A DNA stretch of 64,000 bases from an uncultured Candidatus Peribacteria bacterium (GTDB taxonomy: Bacteria; Patescibacteriota; Gracilibacteria; Peribacterales; Peribacteraceae), in assembly GCA_964534205.1 (NCBI GenBank), contig CAZHQF010000004.1, positions 109,436 to 173,435 of the forward strand, in the 5' to 3' direction. Below, piece after piece: positions 2,434-18,000 of the stretch (its first letter is position 1; every line of letters starts with the position of its first letter). The translations under genes and the position numbers were made by a program. The notes below the pieces were generated by a model. That model did no database searches. It was not told where the DNA came from and worked only from the letters and a program-made list of their open reading frames with translations.

Positions 2434-4023
2434 TTGTCGATGAACGCCCTCCCCCAAAGCATCGAAACCGCGCTGGAAGAAGCCGGCTTCGCAGGCACGG
2501 AAATCCTCATCCTTAGGAGGCTTCTGGAGGGTGAAGCAATGACGGTACGCGAGATCGCATCCAAGACAGGAAAGAGTACGGGCATCCTGGATCAATCGAT
2601 GAAGAAACTGCTACAGAAAGGTGTGGTGGAAAGGCAGTGGGTGAACGACACGACGCGCTACTCACTGACGTCGCTTGATGCCGTTGCGAAATGGATGGCG
2701 GAAGACATGCGCAAGAAGCACGAACTGATGATTCGCAGGCATCAGAATTTTGAGACATTCATCTCAACACTGAAAATAGACAAGAATCGGCCCGAAGTCC
2801 GCTACTACGATGGCGTTACCGGTATCGCCAGTGCATACAGGGAACTCCTGAAACCCGGCCAGGAACTCCTGTGTTTCTCCCCTGTGGATTCACCGAAAGA
2901 GAATGACCCCCTTCAGGAGTTCCATGCGGAATATTTCCGTGACCGTCGTCGTAAAAATATTTTGCAGCGCGTCATCACGCATGATACGCCACTCGGCAGA
3001 CGCCTCCAGAGCCGAGATCCCTTTGAACACCGCCAGACGGTTCTGGTCTCCCAGGAAGAATTCCCTCTGTCTTTTGAAAAAATTATCGCCGGCGATTACA
3101 TCGCCTGCTTTAACCATCTGGAGAACCGCGCCTGTGTGATGCGGTATCCGGAACTGGCTTCTCTGGAACGCGGCCTCTTTGAATCGCAATGGAGACGCGC
3201 CACAAAGCCCCAGCAGCAACCGGAGATTGTGGAGAGTGCGGTTACACCGCCTCCGGTGATTGCCGCAGAGAAAAAAAGTATGGAGGAGGGTCCACTAAGC
3301 ACGCAGACACTTTCTGAACTCAAGAAGTTCTTCTTCCGCGGGAGAAGTATCGCCGTTCTGGCCGGACTGGCCGTTCTGGCCGCCGGAATTACGTACGGGG
3401 TCTACTACAACAACTACCGGCTGCATGTCCGCCAACTCCAGGAACGCGCACTAGCGATCGTGCAAAACAGTGTGCAGGAGATTGATCCGGCTCTTGTAGA
3501 ACAGATTCATACGTCGGAAGATACGAATAAGCCGGCGTATGCACAACTTCTGAAGACCATTACAACAATTCTGAACCGAAATGCAGGAGCAAAATACGTC
3601 TATATCATGCGCCCCCGTTTTGATATCTCTCCGGATAGTTGGGAGTTTGTTGTCGATGCAGATACAGTTGATACTCAAGAGCCGGGAAATCTCTATAGCG
3701 ATAAGGGTTCACTTCCACAGAGTGCTGCCTCTTTAGAAAAGGCGATATATTTTGAGCCCTTCACAGACGAATGGGGTACATGGATCAGTGCCTATGCTCC
3801 AATTCGTGACGTGTCTGGTAAGGCGATTGCCGTTCTTGGTGCAGACACGGAAGATGCAGAAGCCATACAACTCACGACTCGGTCTTTCTCACTGCTTCTA
3901 AGTTTCGTAGGTCTCTTCCTACTCTTTGTTCTGGTGAGAATGGCGGCATTACATGGAGAATTACTGAGATTAGTGTACAAAGCCGTCAATAAAAAGATGT
4001 ACAACAATTGCATCCAGCATTAG
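2434..4023 (+). CDS. Membrane-bound TrmB-family HTH regulator with an extracytoplasmic Cache/PDC-like sensor domain
   Basis: N-terminal winged HTH (ILILRRLLEGEAMTVREIASKTGKSTGILDQSMKKLLQKGVVER). TM segment IAVLAGLAVLAAGITYGVYY, then YVYIMRP...EFVVDAD...DEWGTWISAYAPIRDVSGKAIAVLGADTE, then a second TM segment LLLSFVGLFLLFVLV. Confidence 0.75.
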   Translation: MSMNALPQSIETALEEAGFAGTEILILRRLLEGEAMTVREIASKTGKSTGILDQSMKKLLQKGVVERQWVNDTTRYSLTSLDAVAKWMAEDMRKKHELMIRRHQNFETFISTLKIDKNRPEVRYYDGVTGIASAYRELLKPGQELLCFSPVDSPKENDPLQEFHAEYFRDRRRKNILQRVITHDTPLGRRLQSRDPFEHRQTVLVSQEEFPLSFEKIIAGDYIACFNHLENRACVMRYPELASLERGLFESQWRRATKPQQQPEIVESAVTPPPVIAAEKKSMEEGPLSTQTLSELKKFFFRGRSIAVLAGLAVLAAGITYGVYYNNYRLHVRQLQERALAIVQNSVQEIDPALVEQIHTSEDTNKPAYAQLLKTITTILNRNAGAKYVYIMRPRFDISPDSWEFVVDADTVDTQEPGNLYSDKGSLPQSAASLEKAIYFEPFTDEWGTWISAYAPIRDVSGKAIAVLGADTEDAEAIQLTTRSFSLLLSFVGLFLLFVLVRMAALHGELLRLVYKAVNKKMYNNCIQH

Positions 4024-4095
4024 TCTTGAACTGCTCAAGATATACTTATACCAAGATCGATTATTATTTAGTGTCCAACGAACTATAATTGCTTA

Positions 4096-4542
4096 TTAAA
4101 TATGTTTCGCAGTGCTTATCGAAATAATTGCAGCACCAAGACCAATGAGTACCCCCCCCACGGCGGTAAACCAAGTGATTTGATTCTTGTTTAAAATTAT
4201 AAAAGTGAAGAGGACTATAAAAAGTGGGTACGAAATTTCAATTATTCCTGCTAGAGCAGCATTCTTGTTTAAAATCGAAAAACCAATACAAAGTTCTGCA
4301 GCAACATAAATTGCTATTGCAAATACAGTCCAAACGCCTAGTTCCTTAGAGAGATTAATTGCTTTAAGATCTGGCAATAATGTTGATTGTGCATACCCGA
4401 TTCCAGCAAATATCAAAAAGGAGAAAAATGAGACGATTGTTAAATAACTCGTAACAGTAATTTTTTCAAACAAAACTTCTTGAATTACATAAGTAAGACC
4501 CCAGAGCATCGAAGCCATTAATGCAAGTAGAACCCAAGTCAC
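4096..4542 (-). CDS. EamA/DMT-family half-size membrane transporter
   Basis: 148 aa with about 5 hydrophobic helices. The N-terminus LLALMASMLWGLTYV is typical of EamA domains. Low-GC gene. Confidence 0.6.
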   Translation of the reverse strand: MTWVLLALMASMLWGLTYVIQEVLFEKITVTSYLTIVSFFSFLIFAGIGYAQSTLLPDLKAINLSKELGVWTVFAIAIYVAAELCIGFSILNKNAALAGIIEISYPLFIVLFTFIILNKNQITWFTAVGGVLIGLGAAIISISTAKHI

Positions 4543-4586
4543 TCATTTAAAGTATAACACAAAAATTGGAAATTTCATAATTAAAA

Positions 4587-5111
4587 CTAATTATTATATT
4601 TGTCAATTTTTTCCTGCAAATACCATGAAAAGTAGCCTCTATTGTTCTTTTGAAACTTTTTGTCTTTCCAAGAATTACCGGATATTTTTTTTCTACACTT
4701 TTTCTCAAGGCAATGGCATTTAAATGGTAGTCCATTGACTTGTGTCATTTCTGTTGTCTCGTAATCAAAACAAATTTCTTCCCCAGCCCTAATATCCCTA
4801 CGAGCAACTAATAGTATCTGACCCTTAATGCCTGCATTAGGGTTGCAGGAGTGGTTAAAATGCTCAGAAGCTTCTAGTAACCTGAAATCTAAAGGAATTA
4901 GGAATAAGTCTTCATAGATCGCTATTGGATGCGCAACAATATGAGGTTTCTTTTGAGCAGCTCTAGATAGCGTATCTTTGTGCCAAATCATACCCCCCCA
5001 AGCAGCAATAAGCTCGCCTTGCTTTATTCTTTTTTTTGCAAAAACACCATAATTATGAATCATGGATTGTTTTTTTGCACATTTCTTTGACAGAAAGGAA
5101 AAGTGATGCAC
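4587..5111 (-). CDS. SET-domain protein (putative protein-lysine N-methyltransferase)
   Basis: YGVFAKKRIKQGELI, FNHSCNPNAG, RDIRAGEEICFDYE, and a post-SET-like Cys cluster CHCLEKKC. Low GC. Confidence 0.85.
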   Translation of the reverse strand: MHHFSFLSKKCAKKQSMIHNYGVFAKKRIKQGELIAAWGGMIWHKDTLSRAAQKKPHIVAHPIAIYEDLFLIPLDFRLLEASEHFNHSCNPNAGIKGQILLVARRDIRAGEEICFDYETTEMTQVNGLPFKCHCLEKKCRKKISGNSWKDKKFQKNNRGYFSWYLQEKIDKYNN

Positions 5112-5179
5112 CTAGAGGAGTTGGAAACCCAGATAAATTTCCGATTACAAAATAACCGACGGTATGCTATAATAATCTG

Positions 5180-6625
5180 ATGTTGAAAGCCACAAAACAA
5201 ATACTTAGGCATACGGTGAAGGTAGGTTTGAATCCTTCTTTTTTGGTATTTTTTCTATGTATAACCATTGCAGTCGGCTGCACATTTTTTCTTCAAAATT
5301 ACACTTCTCAGTTATTAAGAGGACGTCTAAACGAAAGGTTGATTGCGATAGTTTCAACTGCCTCGCTGCAATTTGATGGCAGTGAGATTAGTGAGATCAC
5401 TAGGCTGAAAACAAATGCAGAAAAGACAGATATTTATCGTAAGAATGTTTTAAAGTTACAGGCAATTAGGGCAGCTAATAAAAACATTCGTTATGCCTAC
5501 ATAATTGGTAAAACCCAAGATCCTCTTATTGTGGAATATATCGTTGACGCAGATGCAATGATACTGACGCCAACAATTGATTATACGGGCGATGGTCTCG
5601 TTGATGATGATGACATCAGTATTCCGGGAGAGGAATATGATGCAACAGATGTTCCTGCTATGCAGGGTCCTGCTTTTGAATATTCAACAGTTGATGAAGA
5701 ACTTTCAATCGATGAATGGGGAACGTTTTTGTCTGCGTACGCACCAATTCGGGAAAAAAATGGGGAAGTTGTAGGGGCACTTACAATTGACGTAGAAGTC
5801 AGCGAATTTCAGGCACTCGTTAACACAACATTTGTTCCTTTCTCATTATTCATTGTTGCACTTCTGTTTCTTATCAGCTTCCTCACACTGTTTGTTGTTC
5901 GCATCTGGCAAAGCAGAGTTTCATTGCTTCAAGAGCTTGACCGCCAAAAAGATGAGCTCTTGAGCATTGTCAGCCATCAACTTGCTACACCGATTACTTC
6001 CGTAAAGTGGTACTTGGAAATGCTTGCAAATGGTGACATGGGTGAGCTGAAGAAAGAACAGAAAGACCATGTGAAATCCATGCAAGCGATCGCACTGAAT
6101 CTCGCCGATCTTGTCGGCATGATTCTCGATGTGTCCCGCATTCAGCTCGGTCGCATGAAGATCGATAAGCAGGAACTGAATCTCAATGATTTCTTCAAGG
6201 AAATTCTGAATATTATTGAGCCCAAGGCTATTGAAAAGAATGTGCAGTTTATCAAGAACATGCCTGAGTCCTTGCCTGTGGCTAAGCTAGATAGGCGTTA
6301 CACCCACATGACCATCGAGAACCTCCTCAGCAACGCTATCAAGTACACGCCTGAGGGTGGTGAGGTCATCTTCAATCTGGAGATCCGCAATAACACGATG
6401 TACTGCACAGTAAGGGACACCGGTTGCGGTATCCCCAAGGCTGAACAGGAAAAGATCTTCGGGAAGCTCTTCCGCGCCAGCAACGTCCGTAACAAGGTGG
6501 ACGGCAACGGCTTCGGGCTCTATGTGGCCAAGGGTGCCGTGGAAGCCCAGGGCGGCAAAATCCGCTTTGAGAGCACCGAAGGCAAGGGCACCACGTTCTA
6601 CGTTGAGCTGCCCCTTAATAAGTAA
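5180..6625 (+). CDS. Sensor histidine kinase with extracytoplasmic Cache/PDC-like domain (no response regulator in the window)
   Basis: Two TM segments flank YAYIIGK...EYIVDADA...DEWGTFLSAYAPIREKNGEVVGALTIDVE. H-box LSIVSHQLATPITS, N-box NLLSNAIKYTPEGG, G-boxes DTGCGIP and GNGFGLYVAKG. Confidence 0.9.
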   Translation: MLKATKQILRHTVKVGLNPSFLVFFLCITIAVGCTFFLQNYTSQLLRGRLNERLIAIVSTASLQFDGSEISEITRLKTNAEKTDIYRKNVLKLQAIRAANKNIRYAYIIGKTQDPLIVEYIVDADAMILTPTIDYTGDGLVDDDDISIPGEEYDATDVPAMQGPAFEYSTVDEELSIDEWGTFLSAYAPIREKNGEVVGALTIDVEVSEFQALVNTTFVPFSLFIVALLFLISFLTLFVVRIWQSRVSLLQELDRQKDELLSIVSHQLATPITSVKWYLEMLANGDMGELKKEQKDHVKSMQAIALNLADLVGMILDVSRIQLGRMKIDKQELNLNDFFKEILNIIEPKAIEKNVQFIKNMPESLPVAKLDRRYTHMTIENLLSNAIKYTPEGGEVIFNLEIRNNTMYCTVRDTGCGIPKAEQEKIFGKLFRASNVRNKVDGNGFGLYVAKGAVEAQGGKIRFESTEGKGTTFYVELPLNK

Positions 6626-7364
6626 GAGGCCTTACAGTCATTAACACTTGCTGAAGAATCTTTTCACCTTTTTCGCTAGCCGAAAACCAATATGTCCTTA
6701 TTCGAAAGATAGAATTCCCTGAATGTACGATATACTCTCTGTTATCAAAGAAAGTTGGCATTTCAATTACCGAGCTATCGGTTAAATCGATGCTGCCCAT
6801 ATCAAACAAAATTTCGCATAGCTTTCCGAATTCTTTTCTTGAACGAGCGATCTCTTCTCCAGAACAATAAACTGATTCCACAGGAGGTGATGCTAAACCT
6901 CCAGGAAAATTACATATATTTTGTGCCACAAAAAGCTCAGTCTCATCTGATCTATAAAGGGATTCAATATTTGTATATTTGTATGCAGCATTAATATCTG
7001 ACCAAGTTCTTGAATTAGGAGCATTATAATATATTTGATTGCGAGGATCGCAATTATCGGCATTTAGATAATTTGTAATATCAGTATTTTTTTGCCTAAA
7101 GACATATGCCCCGAATGAAAATTCCCCTTCACCACGAGGACCGGTTTCTTCTCCTGAATTTATGGAAAAAAGCCACCAGCCATTAGGATTTTTTATTACT
7201 TTCATTGATTCAGGAGCAGAAAAAACAATTTTTTCATCCTTAAGAGGAATTTCGCTGAATGGGATTTTCATTCCTGTACCAGTAACTAATTCTGCAGGAG
7301 ACTTCTTAATACCAGATGAGCATCCTAGTAAAATTAGACTGATAAAAAGTAAAAGAGATTTCAT
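6615..7364 (-). CDS. Lipoprotein of unknown function (candidate immunity partner of the upstream CHAP-domain protein)
   Basis: Signal peptide plus lipobox MKSLLLFISLILLGCSSG. Its ATG (7364..7362) overlaps the TGA of the upstream ORF (7363..7361) as ATGA. Low GC. Confidence 0.7.
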   Translation of the reverse strand: MKSLLLFISLILLGCSSGIKKSPAELVTGTGMKIPFSEIPLKDEKIVFSAPESMKVIKNPNGWWLFSINSGEETGPRGEGEFSFGAYVFRQKNTDITNYLNADNCDPRNQIYYNAPNSRTWSDINAAYKYTNIESLYRSDETELFVAQNICNFPGGLASPPVESVYCSGEEIARSRKEFGKLCEILFDMGSIDLTDSSVIEMPTFFDNREYIVHSGNSIFRIRTYWFSASEKGEKILQQVLMTVRPLTY

Positions 7365-10300
7365 TCGTTAATTCGGTAAAGAGTAAAGTTGAGAGTCTGG
7401 TTAAGCTTATTCCAACTAAAGAAATGATAACGCGGTGTTAGGTCATCTGTCTCCGTACCATTTGGTAGTGTTCTGCCTTCGCCAAAATTTGAATCAAAAA
7501 CCCATATTCCCTCTGCTGTAACAGATCCTATAAGGAAAGTGTGCTGATAATTATCGAGTGTATATTGAACCATATCGCCAGTAAGCAATTGCTTGGATTC
7601 TGCGAGTTCACTGAGCACTGTTCCCAGAGTACCCTCATCGCTTTCAGTATGACCAGTTGCTATAGCAATAACATCTGTGTTTGAAACCCACTGATACTGG
7701 GCATTTTCCATATTTTTTCCGATATTAATTCCGACTTCCGGATCTTTTAGAATCAATTGCTGTAACCAATATTTACATTGACCCTCTTGAAAGCTTTCAT
7801 AAGGAGTGCCCACCCATGCGTTCGCCTGAGAATCCCAAATCGCTTTGTGCTCATCGGATGCATTTTGGCCAAGGAAGTGTTCAAGAAGGAACTTGATTGT
7901 CGCTGTTGCTTTTGCGCGATCGGGACTCAGGCCGGTAAATGAAAGTGCTTCGAGCACTCTCTGTTTATCCTGTGCATCCAGCGCATCAAAATCGGCAACA
8001 TACTGTCTGGCGATATCTTCGGTAGCTTGGTCATTTATCGATGCGGTAATAGTGCTCACAGATTGTGGAAACATGACATTCACGAATATTTCTGCCTCAC
8101 GGTTTGTGCCACCACCAAGACCCTCCACATTCTCGCCTGTTGATTGCAAAAGGGCAAGTTTTAGCCTAAAAGCTCCTGCTAAGTTCCCGTTGATGCCAGC
8201 ATAAGCCAGAGACTGCATTGGAATTTTTGCAGTATATCCTCCTTGAAATAGAGGTGTGAGTGCAATGCCTCCCCCTTGATGATTCATGCCAATTTGAAAT
8301 CCAAATTCGCTGAGGAGATAGAATGTTCCACCTGAATACAGATTTGTTGTAGTGCTAAAATTTTGCGGCAAAAGGAGATCAAACTTCACAGGAATCATCG
8401 CATTAGGATCAGTGTGATCAAAAGCACCGAGAATGACTTTAGCAACCTCAGGTTTTTCAGGAGCAATTGACGATGATGCTGTCGAAGGAACAAAAAGATG
8501 ATCAAGTCCGGCTATTGCACAAGTTGTCCAAAAAGTTCTAAAGGAACGCGAAGGATCACTTGTCGTGATAGCAAAATTCGCTTGCAGCAATTCACCTGAC
8601 ACTCCCAATAGTCGCTCAGCAATAGCTATTCGTAGCCGCAATTCCCCAATCGAAGTGTCCGCTGCAGATTGAAATAATCCTGTGAGTATCCTTCCTGCAA
8701 CGGTGTCTGTACGCATTTTTTGTCCTTCAAATTCTAAAGCAGAATTCCTGAACCAGGAGAATGCAATAATCTGCAATTGTGAAAGAGGAAGATTATTCAC
8801 TGCCTCGCGTGCATCAACGAGAGAGATCGTATTTTCACTGGCTTGAGTATCAGTGGCATAACCAACAAGTGAAGATGTAAACCCCAATGTCTGTCTAACT
8901 TGTATCTCTGACGTACCAGTGAATGCCGCCAACTGCCCCCAGGAAAGTTCGCGTCCAACAGACCTTGCATAATTATGGAGCGGTACAATGGCATCAGCGG
9001 GTGCCGCCGCGTGGCTGAGGAGAATCACATTCACTGTATGATTGAACGCCGCATCCGACACCTCATTCGTGTCCGCCGGATCCTCATGTTCACTCACCCT
9101 GTGCGTCCAGTTGAGGATCATCTGGTAATAGGCGGATTCCTCGGCTTTGCGCATCTCCACCGCCGCATTCGCATCTGAGCATCTGCACTCCAGGCACTCC
9201 CGGATCTGCTCTGCGGTGGGGAAGCCCGGATAGGAACACTGGAAGCGGGAGAAATCGAAGATGCCCGGCTCCTCCCCGGCATCGCGTCTCATGAGCCAGG
9301 TGTGGTAATCCGAGGCGGCGTTCAGAAGGCGTTCCGAGGCATCGAAGACCTCGTTCCAGACCTGCTCCTCCTGGAACGCGCCCGGATGCCCACCCAGCGC
9401 ATAGATCTGGGCAAAACGCTGCTGCAGCACCTGGTTCTTTGCGCTTGCGAGCAGCTCATTGGTGAAGGCCAGCAAGCCGACTGCAGACCAGATAGAGGAA
9501 GCGACGTTGCGGGCGATGGAATATTCCCCCACCGTGACAGGCTCGATATGCGGCGCGACGGACATGACGAGCGCGGCACTCTCCGCCTGCGCAACGGCGA
9601 GATCCTCCGCATCAGGAACAACGGCAACATCAATGGATGCATCTAGGAGACGCGGGAAGCTCTCCGGCAGAAGCTGCAGCGTCCGTAAGGCCGGATGCCA
9701 CTGTGCATACAGAGACTCTTCCTCGATACGCTGACCGTCGACGAGGACAGACACGCGATACATGCGGTTGCCATCCATGGTCACCGTGCCATTCATCGTG
9801 CCGTGGAAGGGCACAGAGACCGTGACGAAGGATTGCTCTTCATCACGGGTGACCGTGGCACCGAGTTCGAGGCGCACCCAGCCGCCAGGACCGTTAAGCA
9901 TGATCTCCGGCTGCACTTCCTGACCCTCAAGGACAAAAACTCTCAGGACAAGCTTGTTCCTGTTCACACCGAGAATGGAAACGGTGTTCCGCAGTGGCAC
10001 CTCCGTCTCCTCCCGCGCGAACAGATCCTGCGCTGCGATGAGAGCGTTCTCCAGACGCGTGATCCGATTCGCTGCCCCGTTCATCCTGTTCTGCGCCTGC
10101 TCCACGTCCCAGTCCGTCGCCTGGTTCTGATGACGCCGAACGAGGACCGTGTGTAGTTCCTGCTGAAGGGTGGATAGTGAATTTTCGGCTTCAGTAAGCG
10201 CAAATTCAAGGACAGGAATCGCGTGTGCGGCGGCGAAGCGGTTGCCTTCCGTAAGACCGGAGAGAATCTCCTGAAGCACAGGATTGGATTCCGCTGCCGC

Positions 10301-11737
10301 AAAGGCAGCGGCAATGGCATCACTGGACGGCGGAGCTTCCTCCGGCGGGAGGCCCGGATCGGGGTCGGGCTGGGATGCAGCAGCGATCTCCTCGGGTGTG
10401 GGAGGCAGCGGCTCGGGAAGCGGAGTGGCATTCCGGTACGTCTGGATACCACCCTGGATGGATGCAGACACGATTCCCGGCTGTCCACCGGGGGTGAATG
10501 CACCGACGCTGACACCGATCACCTGCTGGTTGTCCTGCAGGATCTGTGGCGAGCCGAACTCACCATTGCCGAGCCCGGTGAGGACAGAAACGCCTCCCTG
10601 GGTATTGCTCCGCTGCCAGAAGAGCGAGGCGACAAGATCGCGTACGTTGTCCCCGTTGAAATCAACGGCCTTGAGTGTGTAGATATGTTGGCCACCCACG
10701 TTATCGATAGAACCGATGCGCTGCAGCGCGCCACTAGTATTGACGGTGTATGTGACAAGCGTGTGATTCTGCGTGGCGGCAATAACGTACATCTGTCCGT
10801 TTTCCTCATACGCAGTCACTGTGTATCCGAGCGCACCGAGATTCACCGAACCGGCTTGCTGATAGCGACCGTTGCCCGTAGAGAGCAGTGTCATCACCTG
10901 ACCCGTGCGGTGGACGATCACCAGGTCCTCGCGGCCATCATGATTGATATCGATGGCCGCACCGTCGAGCGGGAAATCCCCTACGGGAATCATCTCCTGG
11001 TGGTTGTTTTTGGTTACGGTATAGAGCGCGTCAGCTGATTGATCGACAACAATGGTGTCTGCTCCGCTCTGGCCTGCCGTGCGAGCCAAAAACACACTGC
11101 GGGGGTTACCACCCGCTCCTCCGATGACTTCCGGCTCCTGGAAAGTGCCATCCCCGTTGCCCCGCAGGGTGACGATCTCACCGGAACCGTACATTGCCGT
11201 ATTCACATCGATCTTCCCGTCACCATCCCGATCACCAAATGAAACGGAACGCGCATCGGACCCCGGAAGATCAAAACTCTGATAGGCGGATGGAACGCCT
11301 TGCGACGTGAGGGTCCGGATGTTCACTGTACGGTCGTTACTGATATGTGCGGTCGCGGCCTGACCGTTCTCCAGAATCGTCTGGTCGATCGCCATCGTGT
11401 CCGCGCCACCACCGGTACGGGAACCTGCTTCAAACGTCGGATCCGTAACGGAAGGAGTAATGCGGTCGTCGAGCGATTCCAGGACCATGGACCGCGTTGA
11501 GGTACGCGATTGCTCCACAGCCGGATCAGTGGCGCGACGCAGGAGGATTTCGTACGGCTGTTCCTTCGGAGAGGGGGGGCCGGATCTGTGACGGTCGGGC
11601 GTCATGGGAGGAGGGGGGAAGTTCACCACCAGCAAACTCCCTCCCAAAGACAGCCGGGAGGCCCCGGAAACCATCGAAAAAATGAGTGTTCGACTTTTTG
11701 GCTTACAAAAGAGCTCCTTGGCGTTCTGTGACCCCAC
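7361..11737 (-). CDS. Large FG-GAP/VCBS-repeat protein with C-terminal CHAP-like Cys-His peptidase (putative peptidoglycan hydrolase) domain
   Basis: FG-GAP-type repeats (FGDRDGDGKIDV, IDINHDGREDLV, VDFNGDNVRDLV, GNGDGTFQ, GLGNGEFG), then a Pro-rich linker. The C-terminus has EGQCKYWLQQ ... GDMVQYTLDNYQHTFLIGSVTAEGIWVFDSNFG, matching the CHAP GQC...H...N pattern. The true start is probably internal (for example ATG at 11605, MTPDRH), because the first ~40 codons cross an intergenic repeat. Confidence 0.8.
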   Translation of the reverse strand: MGSQNAKELFCKPKSRTLIFSMVSGASRLSLGGSLLVVNFPPPPMTPDRHRSGPPSPKEQPYEILLRRATDPAVEQSRTSTRSMVLESLDDRITPSVTDPTFEAGSRTGGGADTMAIDQTILENGQAATAHISNDRTVNIRTLTSQGVPSAYQSFDLPGSDARSVSFGDRDGDGKIDVNTAMYGSGEIVTLRGNGDGTFQEPEVIGGAGGNPRSVFLARTAGQSGADTIVVDQSADALYTVTKNNHQEMIPVGDFPLDGAAIDINHDGREDLVIVHRTGQVMTLLSTGNGRYQQAGSVNLGALGYTVTAYEENGQMYVIAATQNHTLVTYTVNTSGALQRIGSIDNVGGQHIYTLKAVDFNGDNVRDLVASLFWQRSNTQGGVSVLTGLGNGEFGSPQILQDNQQVIGVSVGAFTPGGQPGIVSASIQGGIQTYRNATPLPEPLPPTPEEIAAASQPDPDPGLPPEEAPPSSDAIAAAFAAAESNPVLQEILSGLTEGNRFAAAHAIPVLEFALTEAENSLSTLQQELHTVLVRRHQNQATDWDVEQAQNRMNGAANRITRLENALIAAQDLFAREETEVPLRNTVSILGVNRNKLVLRVFVLEGQEVQPEIMLNGPGGWVRLELGATVTRDEEQSFVTVSVPFHGTMNGTVTMDGNRMYRVSVLVDGQRIEEESLYAQWHPALRTLQLLPESFPRLLDASIDVAVVPDAEDLAVAQAESAALVMSVAPHIEPVTVGEYSIARNVASSIWSAVGLLAFTNELLASAKNQVLQQRFAQIYALGGHPGAFQEEQVWNEVFDASERLLNAASDYHTWLMRRDAGEEPGIFDFSRFQCSYPGFPTAEQIRECLECRCSDANAAVEMRKAEESAYYQMILNWTHRVSEHEDPADTNEVSDAAFNHTVNVILLSHAAAPADAIVPLHNYARSVGRELSWGQLAAFTGTSEIQVRQTLGFTSSLVGYATDTQASENTISLVDAREAVNNLPLSQLQIIAFSWFRNSALEFEGQKMRTDTVAGRILTGLFQSAADTSIGELRLRIAIAERLLGVSGELLQANFAITTSDPSRSFRTFWTTCAIAGLDHLFVPSTASSSIAPEKPEVAKVILGAFDHTDPNAMIPVKFDLLLPQNFSTTTNLYSGGTFYLLSEFGFQIGMNHQGGGIALTPLFQGGYTAKIPMQSLAYAGINGNLAGAFRLKLALLQSTGENVEGLGGGTNREAEIFVNVMFPQSVSTITASINDQATEDIARQYVADFDALDAQDKQRVLEALSFTGLSPDRAKATATIKFLLEHFLGQNASDEHKAIWDSQANAWVGTPYESFQEGQCKYWLQQLILKDPEVGINIGKNMENAQYQWVSNTDVIAIATGHTESDEGTLGTVLSELAESKQLLTGDMVQYTLDNYQHTFLIGSVTAEGIWVFDSNFGEGRTLPNGTETDDLTPRYHFFSWNKLNQTLNFTLYRINE

Positions 11738-11743
11738 AGAACG
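11694..11743. repeat. Intergenic repeat: TTTTTGGCTTACA(A/G)AAG(A/G)GCTCC module plus CGTTCTGTG/CACAGAACG hairpin
   Basis: CTTTTTGGCTTACAAAAGAGCTCCTTGG followed by CGTTCTGTGACCCCACAGAACG. Related copies at 2272-2348 and 53423-53494. Module-only copies at 49232-49252, 59172-59190 and 61907-61950. Confidence 0.7.
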
Positions 11744-11758
11744 TACGGAAAGTTCTTT

Positions 11759-12484
11759 TTACTTTTGGGCTCCCAACCTCCTCTGCAACTTCTTCAGCGC
11801 CCAGAGCTCCTTGAACATGTTCACAATCACGTAGAGCTTGGCACCGGTGGGGTTCCCCGCCGTGCGCGGGTAGTGCGGCACATCCACCTGCGCCCACTCG
11901 ATCCCCTGCATCTTGAGGCGCAGGAACATCTCGGTGTTGAAGAGTTTTTCATACCCGACGGTCGGGCGGATGGAAGGCCAGAGGTCCCTGAAGTAACACT
12001 TCATGCCGCAGTTCACATCGCGCACCCAGAGGCCGAGGACGATCCAGTTCATGAGACCGAGCACCTTGCCGAACATGTTGCGGATAAAAGAATCCGCGCG
12101 CTTGCGGCGGCGGCCGGTGGCAAAGCGGTGGGTTTCGAGGAGCGGGAGGAGTTTCTCCAGATCCTCGGGCTTGAACTGTCCGTCGGAATCCATGAAGGCG
12201 ATCACCTCCTTGGTGGCGGTATCGCAGCCGGCGCGGATGGCTCCGCCGTAGCCCTGGTTTTTGGTGTTGTGGATCACGCGCAGGTGCGTGTCCTCTTTCG
12301 CCATGGCATCCAGGAGTGCGCCCGTGCGGTCGCGCGAGCCGTCATCCACGGCGATGACTTCGCCGTCCATCCCTGTGCGCGCAAGCCAGGCAAGGCACGC
12401 GCGGACGGTGACAGGCACATTGTCCTCCTCGTTGTAACACGGGAGGACCAGGGAGAGGGAACGCACGGACATCCGGGGCATCAT
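11759..12484 (-). CDS. Family-2 glycosyltransferase (polyprenyl-phosphate sugar synthase type, DPM1/ArnC/GtrB-like)
   Basis: LSLVLPCYNEEDNV, VIAVDDGSRDRT, GYGGAIRAG and MDSDGQFKPEDL motifs. Confidence 0.9.
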   Translation of the reverse strand: MMPRMSVRSLSLVLPCYNEEDNVPVTVRACLAWLARTGMDGEVIAVDDGSRDRTGALLDAMAKEDTHLRVIHNTKNQGYGGAIRAGCDTATKEVIAFMDSDGQFKPEDLEKLLPLLETHRFATGRRRKRADSFIRNMFGKVLGLMNWIVLGLWVRDVNCGMKCYFRDLWPSIRPTVGYEKLFNTEMFLRLKMQGIEWAQVDVPHYPRTAGNPTGAKLYVIVNMFKELWALKKLQRRLGAQK

Positions 12485-12534
12485 TGCGGATGCAGACGAG
12501 CCGGGTCAACGGTTCTTTCCGCGGGCGGGAGCGC

Positions 12535-14331
12535 TCAGCTGAGCGGAAAAAGGGAGATGATCACGATAAACACCGCCGAAAGGGCGGATAGCACTACAAA
12601 AGGAGTGGAAGCGGCAGGGCGCAGCCACTTGAGCCGCGGGTGCAGGCGGTCGGTGGCGAGGAGGGCAAAGGCCAGGAGCGGCAGCAGGGCCAGGAAGGAA
12701 TACCGGAAATCCTGGGAGGAGGAGTACGGGTACCGGATACGGAAGAACAGGTGACCGAAGAGACACGCACCGGCAACGAGCCACAGCGGCATGGTTTTAC
12801 GGATGTTGCCGAAGAAGGAGACGAGCATCCCGAGCGCCGAGAACAAGGCGGTGAACAGACCCGAGATCAGGATGGCGCTGCTGAGGAGCCGCAGCTGCAG
12901 GCTGAAGGTGAACTCCCCGAAGAACGCGGACCGGAAGAGGTATTCCCAGAAGAACTGACGCCCCGCGTCGTCGCCCCACGGGTTGTTGTACACGATCGTG
13001 GCGATCCGCTGGGGGTTGAAGACCGTTAGATTCTGGAGCGTGTTTTGCACGAGCAACCCGGAGTTGAGGTTGCCGATGTTCCCCACGAGCATCTCGTGCT
13101 CTCCCTGGAACAGACGGAAGGCATAGAGCCATCCGCAGAGAAGGAAGAGGATAAGGAGCATCGATCCCGTGAGGGATGCTTTCCGCTTCCACGGGAGCCT
13201 GGGCCGGAGCAGTAGCGCAAGGAACGCGGCGGGAACGAGCAGCAGGGCGTTGCCTTTGGTGAGGATGCCAAGGCCGATGCAGACGGCAACGGCGCTCCAC
13301 TCCCCGTCTTTGGCGTTCTGCCAGAACCGCAGGAGGAAGTAGAAGGCGGCGGTCATCCACAGCTGCAGGAGCACATCGTTGTTGATGCGCGCGGCAAAGA
13401 GGATGAGTCCGGGGAACGTGGCGACGACCGCAGCGAAGAGCAGCCGTTCCATCCGCTGCCGCTTCAGCGGGAACAGGAGCGGCGCGCACGCGCACGCAAA
13501 GCAGAGCGTGAGAATGCTCGCGATGAGCGCACCGGTCTGGATATCGGTGAGAATCGCCTCGTTGCTGCGACCGAAGAACTCCGCGACCGCCATCCAGCCG
13601 CCGGCGGCGGCGTAGTAGAGAGGAGGCTGATAGAACTGCCAGCCGCCGTGCGGCGGAGGGATGGCCGCGTGGTCGGCCATGTAGCGGATGTACTGGATGT
13701 GCCCGTCGGTATCGTGGCCGCGCAGGGAGTACGGCGTGCCGGTAACATAGAGGATGCGCAGCAGGATGCCGGCACAGAGAAGCGCAACGAAGAGGCCGTC
13801 CGTCTTGCGTGTGCGGATGAGCGGGTACAGCTGCAAAACAAACGCAATCAGGAGCGCGAGCGCCGTGAGGTTGAACGTGAGAGTGACGGGATCGAGAGCC
13901 GCAATGCGCACACTCAGTCCGCCGGGTCCGCCGTCGTTGCGGATTTTCACGGTGATGCTGTTGTCTCCGGTGTGAAGGTAGGGGCCCAGATTGAGCACAC
14001 TGCCCTTGCTGTAATCGCAGAAGGGAATCCCCTGCTCGGTAACAAGGACGCTGTTCACGATGACACTCTCCACGCAGTCATCGGGGATGAACTGATAGTA
14101 CGTGGGCATGAGGGAACCCACCGTGAGCGTGAACGTGGCTTCGGCGGTGCTGTTGCCTTCCGAACTGAAGGAGAGCGGCAGCGTGAAAGGCTGCGCATCG
14201 AACCAACCGTCCATGCGGTAACTGCCGGTCCCGAATTCCGGCACCGCCTGCGACCACAGCGTCAGCAGGAGTGCAAACGCCGCAAGAAAGATGCCCGTGC
14301 AGATGCCGATACGGCGGAACCGCAACGTCAT
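12535..14331 (-). CDS. GT-C fold, PMT/ArnT-like (family 39-like) polyprenyl-phosphate-dependent glycosyltransferase with an extra N-terminal extracytoplasmic domain
   Basis: 598 aa with more than 10 TM helices. First-loop motif GHDTDGHIQYIRYMADHAAIPPPHGGWQFYQPPLYY is typical of PMT_2-type enzymes. About 130 aa of non-membrane sequence lie between TM1 and TM2. Confidence 0.7.
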   Translation of the reverse strand: MTLRFRRIGICTGIFLAAFALLLTLWSQAVPEFGTGSYRMDGWFDAQPFTLPLSFSSEGNSTAEATFTLTVGSLMPTYYQFIPDDCVESVIVNSVLVTEQGIPFCDYSKGSVLNLGPYLHTGDNSITVKIRNDGGPGGLSVRIAALDPVTLTFNLTALALLIAFVLQLYPLIRTRKTDGLFVALLCAGILLRILYVTGTPYSLRGHDTDGHIQYIRYMADHAAIPPPHGGWQFYQPPLYYAAAGGWMAVAEFFGRSNEAILTDIQTGALIASILTLCFACACAPLLFPLKRQRMERLLFAAVVATFPGLILFAARINNDVLLQLWMTAAFYFLLRFWQNAKDGEWSAVAVCIGLGILTKGNALLLVPAAFLALLLRPRLPWKRKASLTGSMLLILFLLCGWLYAFRLFQGEHEMLVGNIGNLNSGLLVQNTLQNLTVFNPQRIATIVYNNPWGDDAGRQFFWEYLFRSAFFGEFTFSLQLRLLSSAILISGLFTALFSALGMLVSFFGNIRKTMPLWLVAGACLFGHLFFRIRYPYSSSQDFRYSFLALLPLLAFALLATDRLHPRLKWLRPAASTPFVVLSALSAVFIVIISLFPLS

Positions 14332-14405
14332 GCGTCACAGTGTAGACGAACAAGACGCTTTCTCAGCAGCTGCAGACCGATGGAAAATGATGTGTATTCG
14401 CTGAA

Positions 14406-14452
14406 CGAAAAAACCGCTGTCACCCTTCGACTACGCTCGGGATGACAGCGGT
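14406..14452 (-). terminator. Intrinsic terminator after the 146-aa gene, built from a REP-like hairpin
   Basis: The minus strand reads ACCGCTGTCATCCCGAGCGTAGTCGAAGGGTGACAGCGGT followed by TTTTTTCG. Confidence 0.6.
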
Positions 14453-14471
14453 GTTGATTGCAAAAAGAAAC

Positions 14472-14912
14472 TTACTGTGCGTCGGTGGCACCCTCGGCAG
14501 CAGCGGGCTGCTGGATCTGCACGGGGACAACATCCAGGATGCGGTCCTGGGAAGGGCTATAGAGGATAGCGCGGTCGGTGGTGACGATGAGGTGATCGCC
14601 GTTCTGCGCCTTGGTGTAGAACGCGTTGCGCTCGCGCAGCTTCTCCACGTCCACGATGGTGGCGACCGTGGGCTCGATATCGGACGGGATATCGATGTGG
14701 CGGCGGACCTTCTCCACGATGGCCTTGGCCTCCTCCTGGTTCTGCTGCTGGTTCTCATCCGTCACCTGACCCAGGCGGACGGAGAGCTGAGCCAGCTGAT
14801 CCTCGGCGGCGCGGCGGCGCATATCGAGGACGAGGACGAGGACGACGAGTCCGAGGACGACGAGGAATCCGAGCGGCTTGGCGCGGGAAGCCTTGGTGGA
14901 AGTGGTCTCCAT
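14472..14912 (-). CDS. Small N-terminally membrane-anchored protein, unknown function
   Basis: 146 aa with one TM segment (LGFLVVLGLVVLVLVL), a Gln/Glu-rich linker and a small globular C-terminus. High GC3. Lies between the glycosyltransferases and the giant gene. Confidence 0.7.
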   Translation of the reverse strand: METTSTKASRAKPLGFLVVLGLVVLVLVLDMRRRAAEDQLAQLSVRLGQVTDENQQQNQEEAKAIVEKVRRHIDIPSDIEPTVATIVDVEKLRERNAFYTKAQNGDHLIVTTDRAILYSPSQDRILDVVPVQIQQPAAAEGATDAQ

Positions 14913-15062
14913 GAAGAACGGGGGAAAAGAGGTTCGGATCTCATCCTACGTTGCTTTCCACCGCAGAGGCAAGCCATCTTCGCAGTGTTGCAATTTATAC
15001 GAATGCAACAGAAAAAATATGTCTGTCAAAAAACGTCAGGTTCAGTGTTCCTTCCCGATCTC

Positions 15063-18000
15063 TCAGGGAGTTACGGGGACGGACTCCTGGGGTGCAGGCG
15101 GTGCAGCCTCGACCGGCTCATCGGTAGCAGACGGTGTTTCCTCCGGGAGAGCAGGCTCTTCCACCGGCTCGTCCCCCGAAGGTTCAACGGAGGGGGATGC
15201 TTCGGGCTCAAGGACGGGTTCCTCTGCAGGAGGAAGATCGGCAGGAACATCCGACGGTGTCTCCTCCGGAGGAGGTGTGTCCGACGGTGTCTCACTCGGA
15301 GGTTCCGTCACCGGTTCCTCCAAAGGAGTCTCCTCAGGAGCCGGCTCCGTGATCTCCTCACTCATTGTCTCCTCCACTCGTGAGTACCCGTCCGGGAGGA
15401 CGAGGAGCGGCGGCGTGGTCTGGGTGTTCCAGGTGAATTCAATCGAGAGATCCGGATGCGTCCAGACATAGTCCTCGTGATACCGGCTGCAGGAGAGCGG
15501 GTTCCCGTCGGCATCCAGCGTCACCTGGTTTCTGATACACGCGTTCCAGACCGCGTTACTGGAGAGCGGAACGCCGGAGGCATCGACCGGGAAGGCGATA
15601 CCCACTGAGGAGGACGAGGAAGAGGACGACGTGAGGGCGGACGGATCGAAGGTGAAGGCACCGAGTGCATGCCAGGAGAAGGTGATGTCCTCCGTGGCCG
15701 GAGCGGCAAGACGGATAGTGAAGCCCGTCATGGTGGCGTTGGAGACGGCATAGAGCACCGGCACATCCGGCGAGGCGGTGACGATGGGCTGTACGGTCGT
15801 GGGCGGATCGAAGGTGATGGTGACAGAGGTACCGGACATCGGGATCTTCGCCATGCCTGCCTGGCGATCGCTCACCTGGAGCTCACCGTGCACCTGCACG
15901 TCACCGAGGAACTGTGCGAGGCCTTCAATGGTGACGGGGCCGAGGACATGCAGCGCATTCCTGACGACGAGGGTGCTGAAGTCGACGGTGGAACCCGAAG
16001 CGAATCCGAGTGTCGCGCCGGAGGCGAGTTCCAGCGAGCCCTGGATCGTGAGCACTCCGCCGATCGTGGCACCGGAGGAGACGGTGAGCGTATCGGCATC
16101 GAGGGAGGACGCGGTGAGCGCGCCGTCGATCGTGACGATGCCCGGGATGAAGAGGCTCGAAACCCTGAGCGTGCCATCGAGCTCCAGATCTCCGGCGATG
16201 CGGGCGTTACTGCCGACGATCAGCGTGTCTTCCACATTGAGCGTGGAGGCGACCAGGTCCGCACTGGTTGTTCCTGTGCCAGCTGAGGAGCCTCCGAGAG
16301 AGGTTTCGAGCTGCGAGATGCGGGCTGCGAGAGCGTTCAGCGCACTGTCGCCGGCAACGGTGACCGTGCCGCCGGAGAGGGAATCGATGCGCGCGTTGAG
16401 AGCGGCAAGGCGCTCCTCGATGGATTGCACGTTGAGAGCGGATACCTGGCGGCTCACTTCCTCGCTGATCGGCTGCATCAGCGTGCCGGACGCGGAGAAC
16501 TGCGCCACGGCCTGCTGGAGCGAAAGCTCGAGCTCATCCTGGATCTTGAGATCCTGGACGGTCTGGAGGACGCGCTCGGAAACGGCTTCGGTGGTGAGGC
16601 TCTGGTTGCGGCGCGAGATGAGCACCTGAATGGTCCCCGTGGTGCCCGTGTTCCCGGTGAGACCCGTGAGCGCGACACCCACCGTGGACTCCCCTGCCAT
16701 CGCCTTGCGGACGTACCCGGACAGCGCGGCGGCGGTGAGACTGTCACCCGGACGGATGACGGAACCCGAGGCGATGACGGCCTTTGCCGGGACCTGACCG
16801 ATAAGACCGACAAGGACGGTGCCGGGAACGGGAACGCCGTCTGCACCGGACATCACGTTACCCACGAAGGACGGGTTGGTGGAGACGATACCGATCACGT
16901 CCGGATCGCCGTCGCCGCGGCACTTGCGCACGCTGTTCTCACGCGTGACATCGATACACACCGCATCACCCGGCACCAGATCGGTGTCGGCGGTGCGGAA
17001 CCACTCGGCGTAGTCGGCACCGGTACCGTTGTAGCTGCCGTCCGAGTACACAGTGCCGTCCGCACGGATACTGAAGACGGGATTATTGGCCGACGTGACG
17101 TTGCTCATGATGCGGAAGGCGTTCACGGCCGAGTCCGTGGTGCCCGTGGTGAGCAGCAGGGCTCCGGAGTTGGCGTTGACCCTGAGCGCATAGGAGAGCG
17201 AGCCGCTCGCGGTGATGGAGGCTCCGCCGACGACATTCATGCCCTGGCCCACCGTGAGCGCGCCGCGGATATCGGTATCGTTGAACACCTGGAGATTCTC
17301 GCGGAAGAGACCGGTGCCTGCCTCAAAACCGCCCACGCCGAGCTGATGGATGTACGTGCCGAAGGCGTTGAGGACGTGCAGTTTGCTGTTGGAGGTATCC
17401 GTCAGATATGCATGCTGACCGAGAACGAACAGCGCACGGGGTACGGACAAACTCGTGGACTCACTATCGACGAAGCTGACCGACGCGGGATTGCTGACGT
17501 CGTATACTCCCAATGTGCCGCCAAGGTTGGTGACGTACATGTATTCGCCCTGCACATACACGGACTCGGGATCACTCATGTTGCTCGTCGTGGTGCTGAT
17601 GTGGACCGGATACGCCGGGTTACTGATATCGTAAATGCTGACGCCGTCATTTCCCTGTGCTGCGATGTATGCGTAGCGGCCCTGGACGTAAATGCCCGTC
17701 GGCAAAGAGGTAAAATTCGTACCGCTCGAAACATACGTGGGCGCGGCGGGATCGCTGACATCGAAGACGTACATGGCGTTGGCTTCGACATCTGCGACGT
17801 AGGCGTAGCGGCCCTGGACGTAAATCGCGTACGGATCGGCGAGGTTGGTGCTGACGACACCGACCCTGATGGGATTTTTGGGGTTGCTGACATCGATGAC
17901 ATTCAGCGTGTCATTGTTGGACACAACGTATGCATACCGGCCCTGGACGTACACGTCTCTGAGAAGACCGGCGAGCGTGACTGAACCTACACTGGTTATG

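Follow-up and report, generated by a model that had tools for sequence, protein, structure and literature searches.

A candidate polymorphic-toxin-type locus with an exchangeable CHAP-like C-terminus and a coupled lipoprotein gene in an uncultured Candidatus Peribacteria bacterium

A 64,000-nucleotide stretch of the genome of an uncultured Candidatus Peribacteria bacterium (assembly GCA_964534205.1, contig CAZHQF010000004.1, positions 109,436 to 173,435 of the forward strand; this whole stretch is called the window, and positions are counted from its first letter) carries on its minus strand the gene of a giant modular protein with a CHAP-like C-terminal domain, the tip, and directly 3′ of it the gene of a small lipoprotein. 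The two genes probably encode an effector of the polymorphic-toxin type, with an exchangeable peptidoglycan-hydrolase tip, and the cognate surface lipoprotein that protects the producer. Displacement of the C-terminal region is evident from sequence comparison with a homologue of the giant protein, and an immunity role is what we infer for the lipoprotein.

The longest open reading frame (ORF) of the locus, 7361..11737 on the minus strand, has 1458 codons and is GTG-initiated. The true start is probably M45 at 11605, with a product of 1414 amino acids (aa), since M45 is aligned with the first residue of the homologue P0003 (MTPDRH/MTPERD); gene callers on other assemblies gave products of 1422 and 1437 aa. 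From the N-terminus onward the protein has a leader and an FG-GAP propeller, then a central region that is conserved and a C-terminal region that is exchangeable (Table 1). The Pfam model FG-GAP_3 is matched with 55.7 bits against a cut-off of 26.9, and the propeller region is 65-88% identical to that of P0003.

A homology search with the N-terminal 872 aa of the giant protein as query returned one true relative besides the protein itself, namely P0003 (1464 aa, from another assembly), which is 72% identical over the whole query, and the remaining matches share FG-GAP repeats only. Scans of the GTDB species genomes (185,579) and of Joint Genome Institute (JGI) metagenomes with the backbone alignment gave no relatives. 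Compared in blocks of 40 codons, identity to P0003 is 0.6-0.88 through aa 834, drops from 0.88 to 0.38 in the block right after the motif YYQMILNWTHRV, stays at 0.25-0.40 over ~195 residues, and is 0.12-0.28 thereafter. The content of guanine plus cytosine (GC) at third codon positions (GC3) falls from 0.80 to 0.40 and 0.30 between 9100 and 8860, and the point of divergence from P0003 coincides with this GC step. The tip of P0003 is a Peptidase_M23 domain (39.6 bits, Pfam cut-off 28.7). P0002 and P0003 are 72% identical for about 835 aa, after which P0002 has a CHAP-like and P0003 an M23 tip. A preliminary description of the window had postulated a displaced C-terminal module, and the shared backbone followed by a different tip in P0003 bears this out.

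The P0003 locus (L003) differs from the window also 3′ of the giant gene, where six mostly overlapping lipoprotein genes stand in the order A, A, B, A, B, C by family (5756-9423), the third family A copy being frameshifted (7337-7627 and 7611-7826). The family A proteins end in the motif EMA(K/Q)QIFESFRWT(E/K). After the array follow an EamA-like gene, a histidine kinase gene (62% identical to that of the window) and a SET-domain gene (52%), the latter two at 10097-12536 and low in GC there too. Because the backbone on one side and the kinase and SET genes on the other match L003, the two loci are orthologous on both flanks of the replaced middle.

Relatives of the C-terminal region were collected in an exhaustive HMMER search with the last 542 aa against 1.84 billion representative sequences (E≤1e-3), in which 51 representative proteins were matched. 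Matches to the last 223 aa are in all cases located at the very C-terminal end of the protein; many of the matched proteins are 1200-1950 aa long and dissimilar in their N-terminal parts, with backbones of FG-GAP, WD40 propeller, LamG, NPCBM or coiled-coil type. Ahead of the tip, the low-GC linker module is 25-40% identical to the M23-ended homologue and to many other family members: the linker matches cover query residues 4-170 (P0003, P0082, P0113, P0125), and the BLASTP alignment of the giant protein with P0003 extends to about aa 1055. Several of the proteins retrieved possess both linker and spacer and have different ends; P0119 ends in an M23 domain (36.4 bits, Pfam cut-off 28.7), and M23-like motifs were recognised by inspection in P0123, P0125 and P0094. 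The partial protein P0089, a CHAP-like tip with Gln in place of the catalytic His, is 97% identical to P0125 over 69 aa, followed by total divergence into the M23-like tip of P0125. A recombination boundary is placed at the spacer/tip junction (window ~8032) because P0089 and P0125 diverge there, so that two boundaries can be read from the aligned sequences, one between backbone and linker (window ~9100) and one between spacer and tip. Since the CHAP-like domain alternates at the same site with M23, a peptidoglycan endopeptidase family, we infer that peptidoglycan is the substrate.

The GC content is 0.597 at 8990-11605, 0.435 at 7364-8989 and 0.352 in the lipoprotein gene, with respective GC3 values of 0.68, 0.34 and 0.24, and the step lies at about 8985-9100. 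Against 552 windows of the same length taken outside the low-GC island (mean GC 0.59, standard deviation 0.029, minimum 0.515), the segment 7364-8989 has a z value of -5.4. The preliminary description had contrasted the last ~540 codons, as low in GC, with the N-terminal part of the ORF; the computed step agrees with this and coincides with the switch of P0003 to its M23 tip. The description was also right in assigning low GC to both the C-terminus and the lipoprotein gene, but it missed that the tract is wider (about 3600-9000) and includes the EamA-like, SET and kinase genes.

In all loci examined, GC falls from 0.55-0.70 to about 0.35-0.45 across the last 0.7-1.6 kb of the big gene and the lipoprotein gene, and in L084, L091, L092 and L093 it is back at host level straight after the lipoprotein gene; the L090 contig stops before any return could show. 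The drop is common to tips with only 30% mutual identity. Because of this, and because the orthologous kinase and SET genes of the window and L003 are low in GC as well, the low GC is a lasting property of the pool of cassettes and gives no measure of time; the earlier proposal that the module was displaced "recently" is not supported.

An abrupt GC change inside an ORF on a metagenome-derived contig is also what a chimera of assembly or binning would give, if a high-GC and a low-GC organism had been fused within one ORF. This explanation was rejected and is scarcely conceivable: the frame stays open through 542 low-GC codons, the same break occurs in ten other family members from different samples, high GC resumes beyond the island, and the junction is repeated in separate assemblies. 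In one Logan assembly from another run (L001) the locus is 100% identical, junction included; in a second one, also from another run (L002), identity is 99.3% with every difference outside the locus; and in the independent NCBI assembly GCA_034680565.1 (L003) GC and identity break at the homologous position of the gene.

The tip contains the motifs EGQCKYW, NYQHTFLIGSV and GIWVFDSN, and the Cys-His motifs quoted in the preliminary description are present in the translation. In an alignment of 24 tips, C86, K87, W89, W115, G152, Q156, G175, W177, D180 and N182 are invariant, H164 is near-invariant (at least 90% of the tips), and the spacing from His to Asp is exactly 16 residues in every member. 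At the level of sequence families the tip stands apart: that of the window has no Pfam CHAP match, and its Amidase_6 score is 17.5 bits, under the cut-off of 23.2. When the 24 tips were scanned singly, Pfam Amidase_6 was found in 14 and CHAP in seven, all as weak matches (best E = 2.5e-4), and sequence searches of the PDB with the single sequence and with the family profile gave chance matches only.

The AlphaFold2 model built from the 24-sequence alignment has a predicted local distance difference test score (pLDDT) of 93.6 and a predicted template modelling score (pTM) of 0.90. Cys86 opens the helix 86-95, His164 lies in the strand 162-171 and Asp180 in the strand 175-181, an arrangement that is papain-like in the model. 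In the Foldseek comparison with the PDB the top match was the CHAP endolysin Ly7917, followed by PlyGRCS, the CHAP domain of the Escherichia coli Gsp amidase, Tse1/Tae1, Tae2 and other papain-like peptidases, and among viral models (BFVD) CHAP/Peptidase C51 endolysins predominate. The Foldseek E-values are 3e-3 (PDB) and 9e-5 (BFVD), with template modelling (TM) scores of about 0.35-0.47.

With CHAP (PF05257) and Amidase_6 (PF12671) the tip has in common a Cys at the N-terminus of a helix, a His in a strand and an acidic-x-Asn motif 16 residues on, which we take to match the H...E-x-N arrangement of CHAP; the structures best matched are Ly7917 (5d74), PlyGRCS (8xyf) and the E. coli Gsp amidase (3a30). 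Unlike these families, the tip adds an N-terminal leader of three helices (domain residues 1-55) and additional sequence between Cys and His (67-87 aa), and CK.W and GIWVFDSN are invariant and specific to the tip family. The domain is therefore best called CHAP-like and not a member of the CHAP family: of the CHAP identity first given to it, the resemblance in fold is retained and the Pfam membership is not. The expected papain-like fold and catalytic Cys/His are found in the confident model and the alignment, where Cys and Asp-x-Asn are invariant and His is nearly so. The tip defines an undescribed family, absent from Pfam and NCBIfam, which according to the model would be a new family of papain-fold cell-wall hydrolases with a clean catalytic signature.

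Enzymes of the CHAP/NlpC and M23 types, and lipoproteins that regulate them, are common in normal wall growth, and the giant gene is single-copy in the window, as would suit a housekeeping autolysin with a lipoprotein regulator, whose low GC would merely be local composition. This is very improbable in view of the orthologous backbones that bear non-homologous tips, the occurrence of the tip on many unrelated backbones, the composition of the cassette, foreign in every genome, and the rarity and patchiness of the family, the backbone having no relatives among 185,579 species genomes.

The lipoprotein of the window begins with MKSLLLFISLILLGC, a lipoprotein signal of standard form (lipobox pattern [LVI][ASTVI][GAS]C), in which the lipobox LLGC occupies codons 12-15 (7320-7331) with the Cys at position 15, and further contains four conserved Cys and a CNFPGG motif. 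The overlap of stop and start as ATGA and the downstream low-GC lipoprotein gene with an LLGC lipobox had both been read in the preliminary description, and both were confirmed. The lipoprotein has no Pfam or NCBIfam match, none of the lipoproteins of the tip loci checked matches Pfam at its cut-offs, and a word-indexed search with the window lipoprotein returned itself only, homologues having come solely from the neighbourhoods of related tips. The Lgt/Lsp processing machinery is not encoded within the window. Lipoprotein annotations are reported for Candidatus Peribacter (PMC4736985).

The neighbourhoods of the tips were compared in the window and in ten other genes with CHAP-like tips (L084-L093). 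A protein with a lipobox is encoded directly 3′ of the tip gene in 10 of the 11 loci, the window included, and a 4-nt overlap is present in eight (window, L084, L085, L087, L088, L090, L091 and L092), the overlapping lipoprotein start of L088 having been overlooked by the gene caller. In the remaining locus, L093, the gene after the tip (10502-11539) encodes an SLH protein whose N-terminal part resembles the L090 lipoprotein, so that in this partner the lipid anchor seems to have given way to a wall anchor. Some 1.6 kb past the SLH-protein gene there is a separate M23 gene.

The tips nearest to that of the window are those of P0079 (52% identical) and P0080, and the lipoproteins encoded after them are homologous to the window lipoprotein (33% and 30% identity, E about 1e-22 and 1e-21, respectively). 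The four Cys are kept and CNFPGG is invariant across the lipoproteins of the window, L084 and L085, and the backbones of these three loci, of FG-GAP, WD40 and coiled-coil type, are mutually unrelated. Homologous lipoproteins are confined to the tips of these three loci, which are also the most similar ones; the chance that the lipoprotein clique is also the top tip clique is 1 in 120 triples (ten loci). Judged by these sequences, tip and lipoprotein are transferred jointly among the closest relatives. Farther tips pair with other lipoprotein families, and in a profile comparison the family of the window lipoprotein is weakly linked to some others and not to family B. The family B lipoproteins of L003 have 36-41% identity with the partner of the CHAP-like tip in L092, and the tip of L003 itself is of the M23 type; such a pattern is expected of orphan immunity genes in polymorphic toxin loci (PMC3482391). 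An orphan tip was not located in any genomic context.

An AlphaFold model of the lipoprotein, made with three sequences, reached a pLDDT of 56 only. This low-confidence model gave weak PsbP/Mog1-like matches, among them Tsi3, an immunity protein of the type VI secretion system (T6SS), and the L092 lipoprotein has one weak Pfam PsbP_2 match. A PsbP/Mog1-like sandwich fold is, from such a model, a hint only.

Alternatively, the lipoprotein could be no inhibitor and instead keep the tip at the membrane surface as an anchor, chaperone, export partner or activator. An obligate partner of this kind would equally be tightly coupled by gene arrangement and jointly inherited, the giant protein lacks an anchor and a signal peptide, and the partner in L093 bears SLH wall-anchoring domains. 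Such a role is nevertheless improbable, as several unrelated lipoprotein families accompany one conserved tip family, which is typical of fast-evolving inhibitors and not of assembly factors, and tandem paralogous arrays beside a single effector would make little sense for an anchor; the weak PsbP/Mog1-like hint with Tsi3, though from a low-confidence model, points the same way.

The N-terminal leader VLESLDDRITPS is a motif of the "LExLExRxLLS" type, and no hydrophobic signal peptide precedes it. A similar motif, likewise with no hydrophobic signal peptide ahead of it, lies within the first ~90 residues of P0079, P0080, P0082, P0084, P0099, P0105, P0108 and P0125. The N-terminal leaders gave no match to NCBIfam models; the motif presumably resembles the annotation "LEPR-XLL". 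This LExLExR-like motif may be an uncharacterised export leader.

Polymorphic toxins are characterised by a toxin-then-immunity gene order, 3′ strings of immunity genes and tips that include the NlpC/P60 clade of peptidases, exemplified by Hoch_2166 of Haliangium (PMC3482391). The locus is alike in the tip recombined onto varied N-terminal architectures, in the immunity-type gene directly 3′ of it, in the gene strings of L003, and in a papain-like tip predicted to degrade the wall of the target. It is unlike them in having no RHS, filamentous-haemagglutinin, LXG, WXG, PAAR or other known trafficking module, in its beta-propeller, LamG or NPCBM backbones, in tip and lipoprotein families that fall outside Pfam and NCBIfam, and in the lack of standalone tip cassettes in the window. 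A literature search linking polymorphic toxins to the candidate phyla radiation (CPR)/Patescibacteria returned nothing relevant. The T6SS pairs Tse1/Tae1-Tsi1 and Tse3-Tsi3, and Tae2, likewise combine a papain-like Cys-His peptidoglycan hydrolase with an adjacent extracytoplasmic immunity gene; their effectors, however, are small, stand-alone and injected by diderms, whereas the domain described here terminates a protein of more than 1400 aa. The window is free of T6SS genes, and the tip resembles the T6SS effectors in fold alone (TM about 0.35, 10-12% identity).

In Rhs and CdiA proteins, too, a core is kept up to a short boundary motif and is followed by a variable tip and an immunity gene, and their tips are known to have lower GC than the core, as here. 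The boundary motif of the present locus is YYQMILNWTHRV and not PxxxxDPxGL or VENN, a YD-repeat shell and two-partner secretion are both absent, and the exchanged unit is larger (about 540 aa with linker and spacer). A further likeness is to TelC and TipC of Streptococcus, where an envelope toxin of a monoderm, of the LXG type, is neutralised extracytoplasmically by a membrane-tethered lipoprotein; TelC, a lipid II phosphatase that leaves the cell through a type VII system, is related to the tip neither in sequence nor in fold.

The 3′ cassette, composed of linker, spacer, tip and lipoprotein gene, has moved among unrelated backbones by recombination at the two boundaries. In the mechanism proposed for such an effector, the tip would act outside the cytoplasm and cleave peptidoglycan at peptide or amide bonds. 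The lipoprotein, tethered to the membrane on its outer side and made stable by disulfides, would bind and block the cognate tip and so shield the wall of the producer. Where there are extra lipoprotein genes, as in L003, they may be leftovers of earlier swaps or may protect from the tips of neighbours. The target would be competing relatives or the cell lived on.

Several observations weigh against an effector/immunity pair of polymorphic-toxin type. The co-variation of tip and lipoprotein that had been predicted for such a pair holds for the window, L084 and L085, but is not followed by L086 and L091, the tips of which are similar (0.41) and the lipoproteins unrelated, nor by the Mantel comparison of tip and lipoprotein similarity (r = 0.12, p = 0.2, not significant). 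The 64-kb window has no further tips, M23 domains or lipoprotein homologues and no standalone tip cassettes. The giant protein is without a signal peptide and without any Pfam or NCBIfam trafficking domain. The tip family stays under the Pfam thresholds for CHAP and Amidase_6, and its structural matches score low on an absolute scale (best PDB E = 3e-3, TM about 0.35). The backbone is common to one other genome only, and in the second strain sampled the locus shows no difference at all, so that polymorphism within a species was not observed among the strains sampled. In the window, finally, the low GC spreads into neighbouring genes, and the cassette is not delimited by composition.

As to the target, the locus could instead be a host-directed weapon of an episymbiont, in which the giant protein breaches or remodels the wall of the host, swaps fit the tip to different host wall chemistries, and the lipoprotein only protects the cell itself. 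Peribacteria are predicted to be symbiotic and to possess large, strain-variable surface proteins (PMC4736985), the backbone modules FG-GAP, WD40, LamG and NPCBM are of adhesion type, and CHAP-like and M23 tips cut different bonds of peptidoglycan, all of which would suit such a weapon. The strings of lipoproteins in L003, related to the partners of other genomes, better fit a defence against the toxins of neighbours, and no feature of the locus distinguishes the target; use against the host is on balance unlikely, if less so than an anchoring role of the lipoprotein. Spelled out for the CPR, and at the same rather low probability, it would be a contact weapon of parasitism and not of kin competition: the leader would direct Sec-independent export, the propeller or lectin backbone would bind, the tip would open the wall of the partner, swapping would track the wall chemistry of the host, and the lipoprotein would serve for self-protection. 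If true, this would be a previously unrecognised module of parasitism.

With the polymorphic-toxin-type effector as the preferred reading, the locus offers a concrete biochemical role to one class of giant CPR surface proteins, in a group (CPR/Patescibacteria) whose means of attack, attachment and competition are poorly understood and many of whose giant surface proteins lack an assigned function. Besides the tip family, it defines several new lipoprotein families, candidate inhibitors of that family, and two recombination boundaries for the exchange of tips. A polymorphic-toxin design on propeller and lectin backbones with no known secretion module points to an undiscovered export route, and the enzyme-inhibitor pairs could serve as lytic enzymes with matched off-switches.

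Table 1. Features of the giant-gene locus and of the adjoining low-GC island, in positions of the window.
Feature	Position	Strand	Basis
Giant modular protein gene	7361..11605	-	ORF list, translation, alignment to P0003
N-terminal leader motif VLESLDDRITPS	11450..11485	-	read directly in sequence
FG-GAP/VCBS beta-propeller region of backbone	10448..11233	-	Pfam FG-GAP_3, FG-GAP matches
Final conserved backbone motif YYQMILNWTHRV	9095..9130	-	identity drop to P0003, GC3 fall
Low-GC "pre-tip" linker module	8480..8989	-	BLASTP to P0003, representative-search matches
Conserved spacer domain, linker to catalytic tip	8033..8479	-	matches P0080-P0084, P0094, P0119, P0123, P0125
C-terminal 223-aa CHAP-like papain-fold tip, predicted peptidoglycan amidase/endopeptidase	7364..8032	-	alignment, AlphaFold2, Foldseek
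Catalytic codons of tip	Cys 7775-7777, His 7541-7543, Asp 7493-7495, Asn 7487-7489	-	sequence
ATGA overlap of giant-gene stop with lipoprotein start	7361..7364	-	sequence
249-aa lipoprotein gene, predicted cognate immunity protein	6615..7364	-	translation
HisKA/HATPase histidine kinase gene	5180-6625	+	Pfam
SET-domain gene	4587-5111	-	Pfam
EamA-like fragment	4096-4542	-	Pfam
Low-GC island, GC 0.30-0.46 in a genome of about 0.59	3600..9000	.	composition profiles, Pfam

Within the low-GC island lie the genes of the lipoprotein, the histidine kinase and the SET-domain protein, together with the exchangeable region and the EamA-like fragment. L003 has a second, divergent SET gene, and SET methyltransferase genes have no evident place beside a toxin-type locus in a CPR genome. 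Scans for promoters and terminators gave matches at chance level only.

The locus of an NPCBM-backbone protein, L092 (1-15451), is syntenic with the window upstream of the giant gene, where both have a giant LamG protein, a 149-aa gene, a PMT-like gene and a glycosyltransferase (GT2, 72% identical). The whole site of the giant gene is variable at sequence level, because L092 shares the upstream glycosyltransferase yet carries an NPCBM backbone at the position of the giant gene. A second NPCBM protein gene (1700 aa) lies 1.7 kb downstream in L092.

No difference separates the window from the second strain (assembly L002, SRR12404957) between 791 and about 13000, and from 13027 to 17352 there are 119 differences (10-53 per kb, indels included), which fall in the PMT-like gene, a 146-aa gene and the C-terminal end of a 4503-aa protein. 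The sharp boundary suggests recombination at strain level in giant surface-protein genes. The 4503-aa protein is encoded by one of three tandem giant ORFs of 4503, 2998 and 2710 aa (15063-45916, minus strand), and a further ORF of 1514 aa is located at 53645-58189 (minus strand). The 2710-aa and 1514-aa ORFs, the two scanned, contain no Pfam domain, and an identity of these giant neighbours as polyketide synthases or nonribosomal peptide synthetases (PKS/NRPS) was dropped on this ground. The C-terminal motif TWNTQTTPPLL(V/L)LPDGY is common to the 4503-aa and 2998-aa products, which continue from there into acidic tails rich in Pro and Glu, and a 400-nt repeat with 80% identity connects the region about 16000 with 29529-29925.

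Candidatus Peribacter is described as having 58.5% GC, a small genome and "large extracellular proteins", some with FG-GAP, and strain variation (PMC4736985). The PilT of the window is 68% and 58-59% identical to PilT proteins of metagenome-assembled genomes (MAGs) of Candidatus Peribacteria, in which the PilT gene has the same neighbours, a TrmB-like regulator gene and an ORF of 170 aa. This synteny fits a Peribacteria lineage, and an earlier assignment of the organism to the planctomycetes was dropped on its account. At its left edge (3450-4023), too, the island begins within a gene, a TrmB/HTH-like ORF of 529 aa (2434-4023, plus strand), in which GC falls from about 0.55 to 0.37 in the 3′ part, and a full-length TrmB/HTH-like protein is kept beside PilT in the Peribacteria MAGs, with 40-53% identity.

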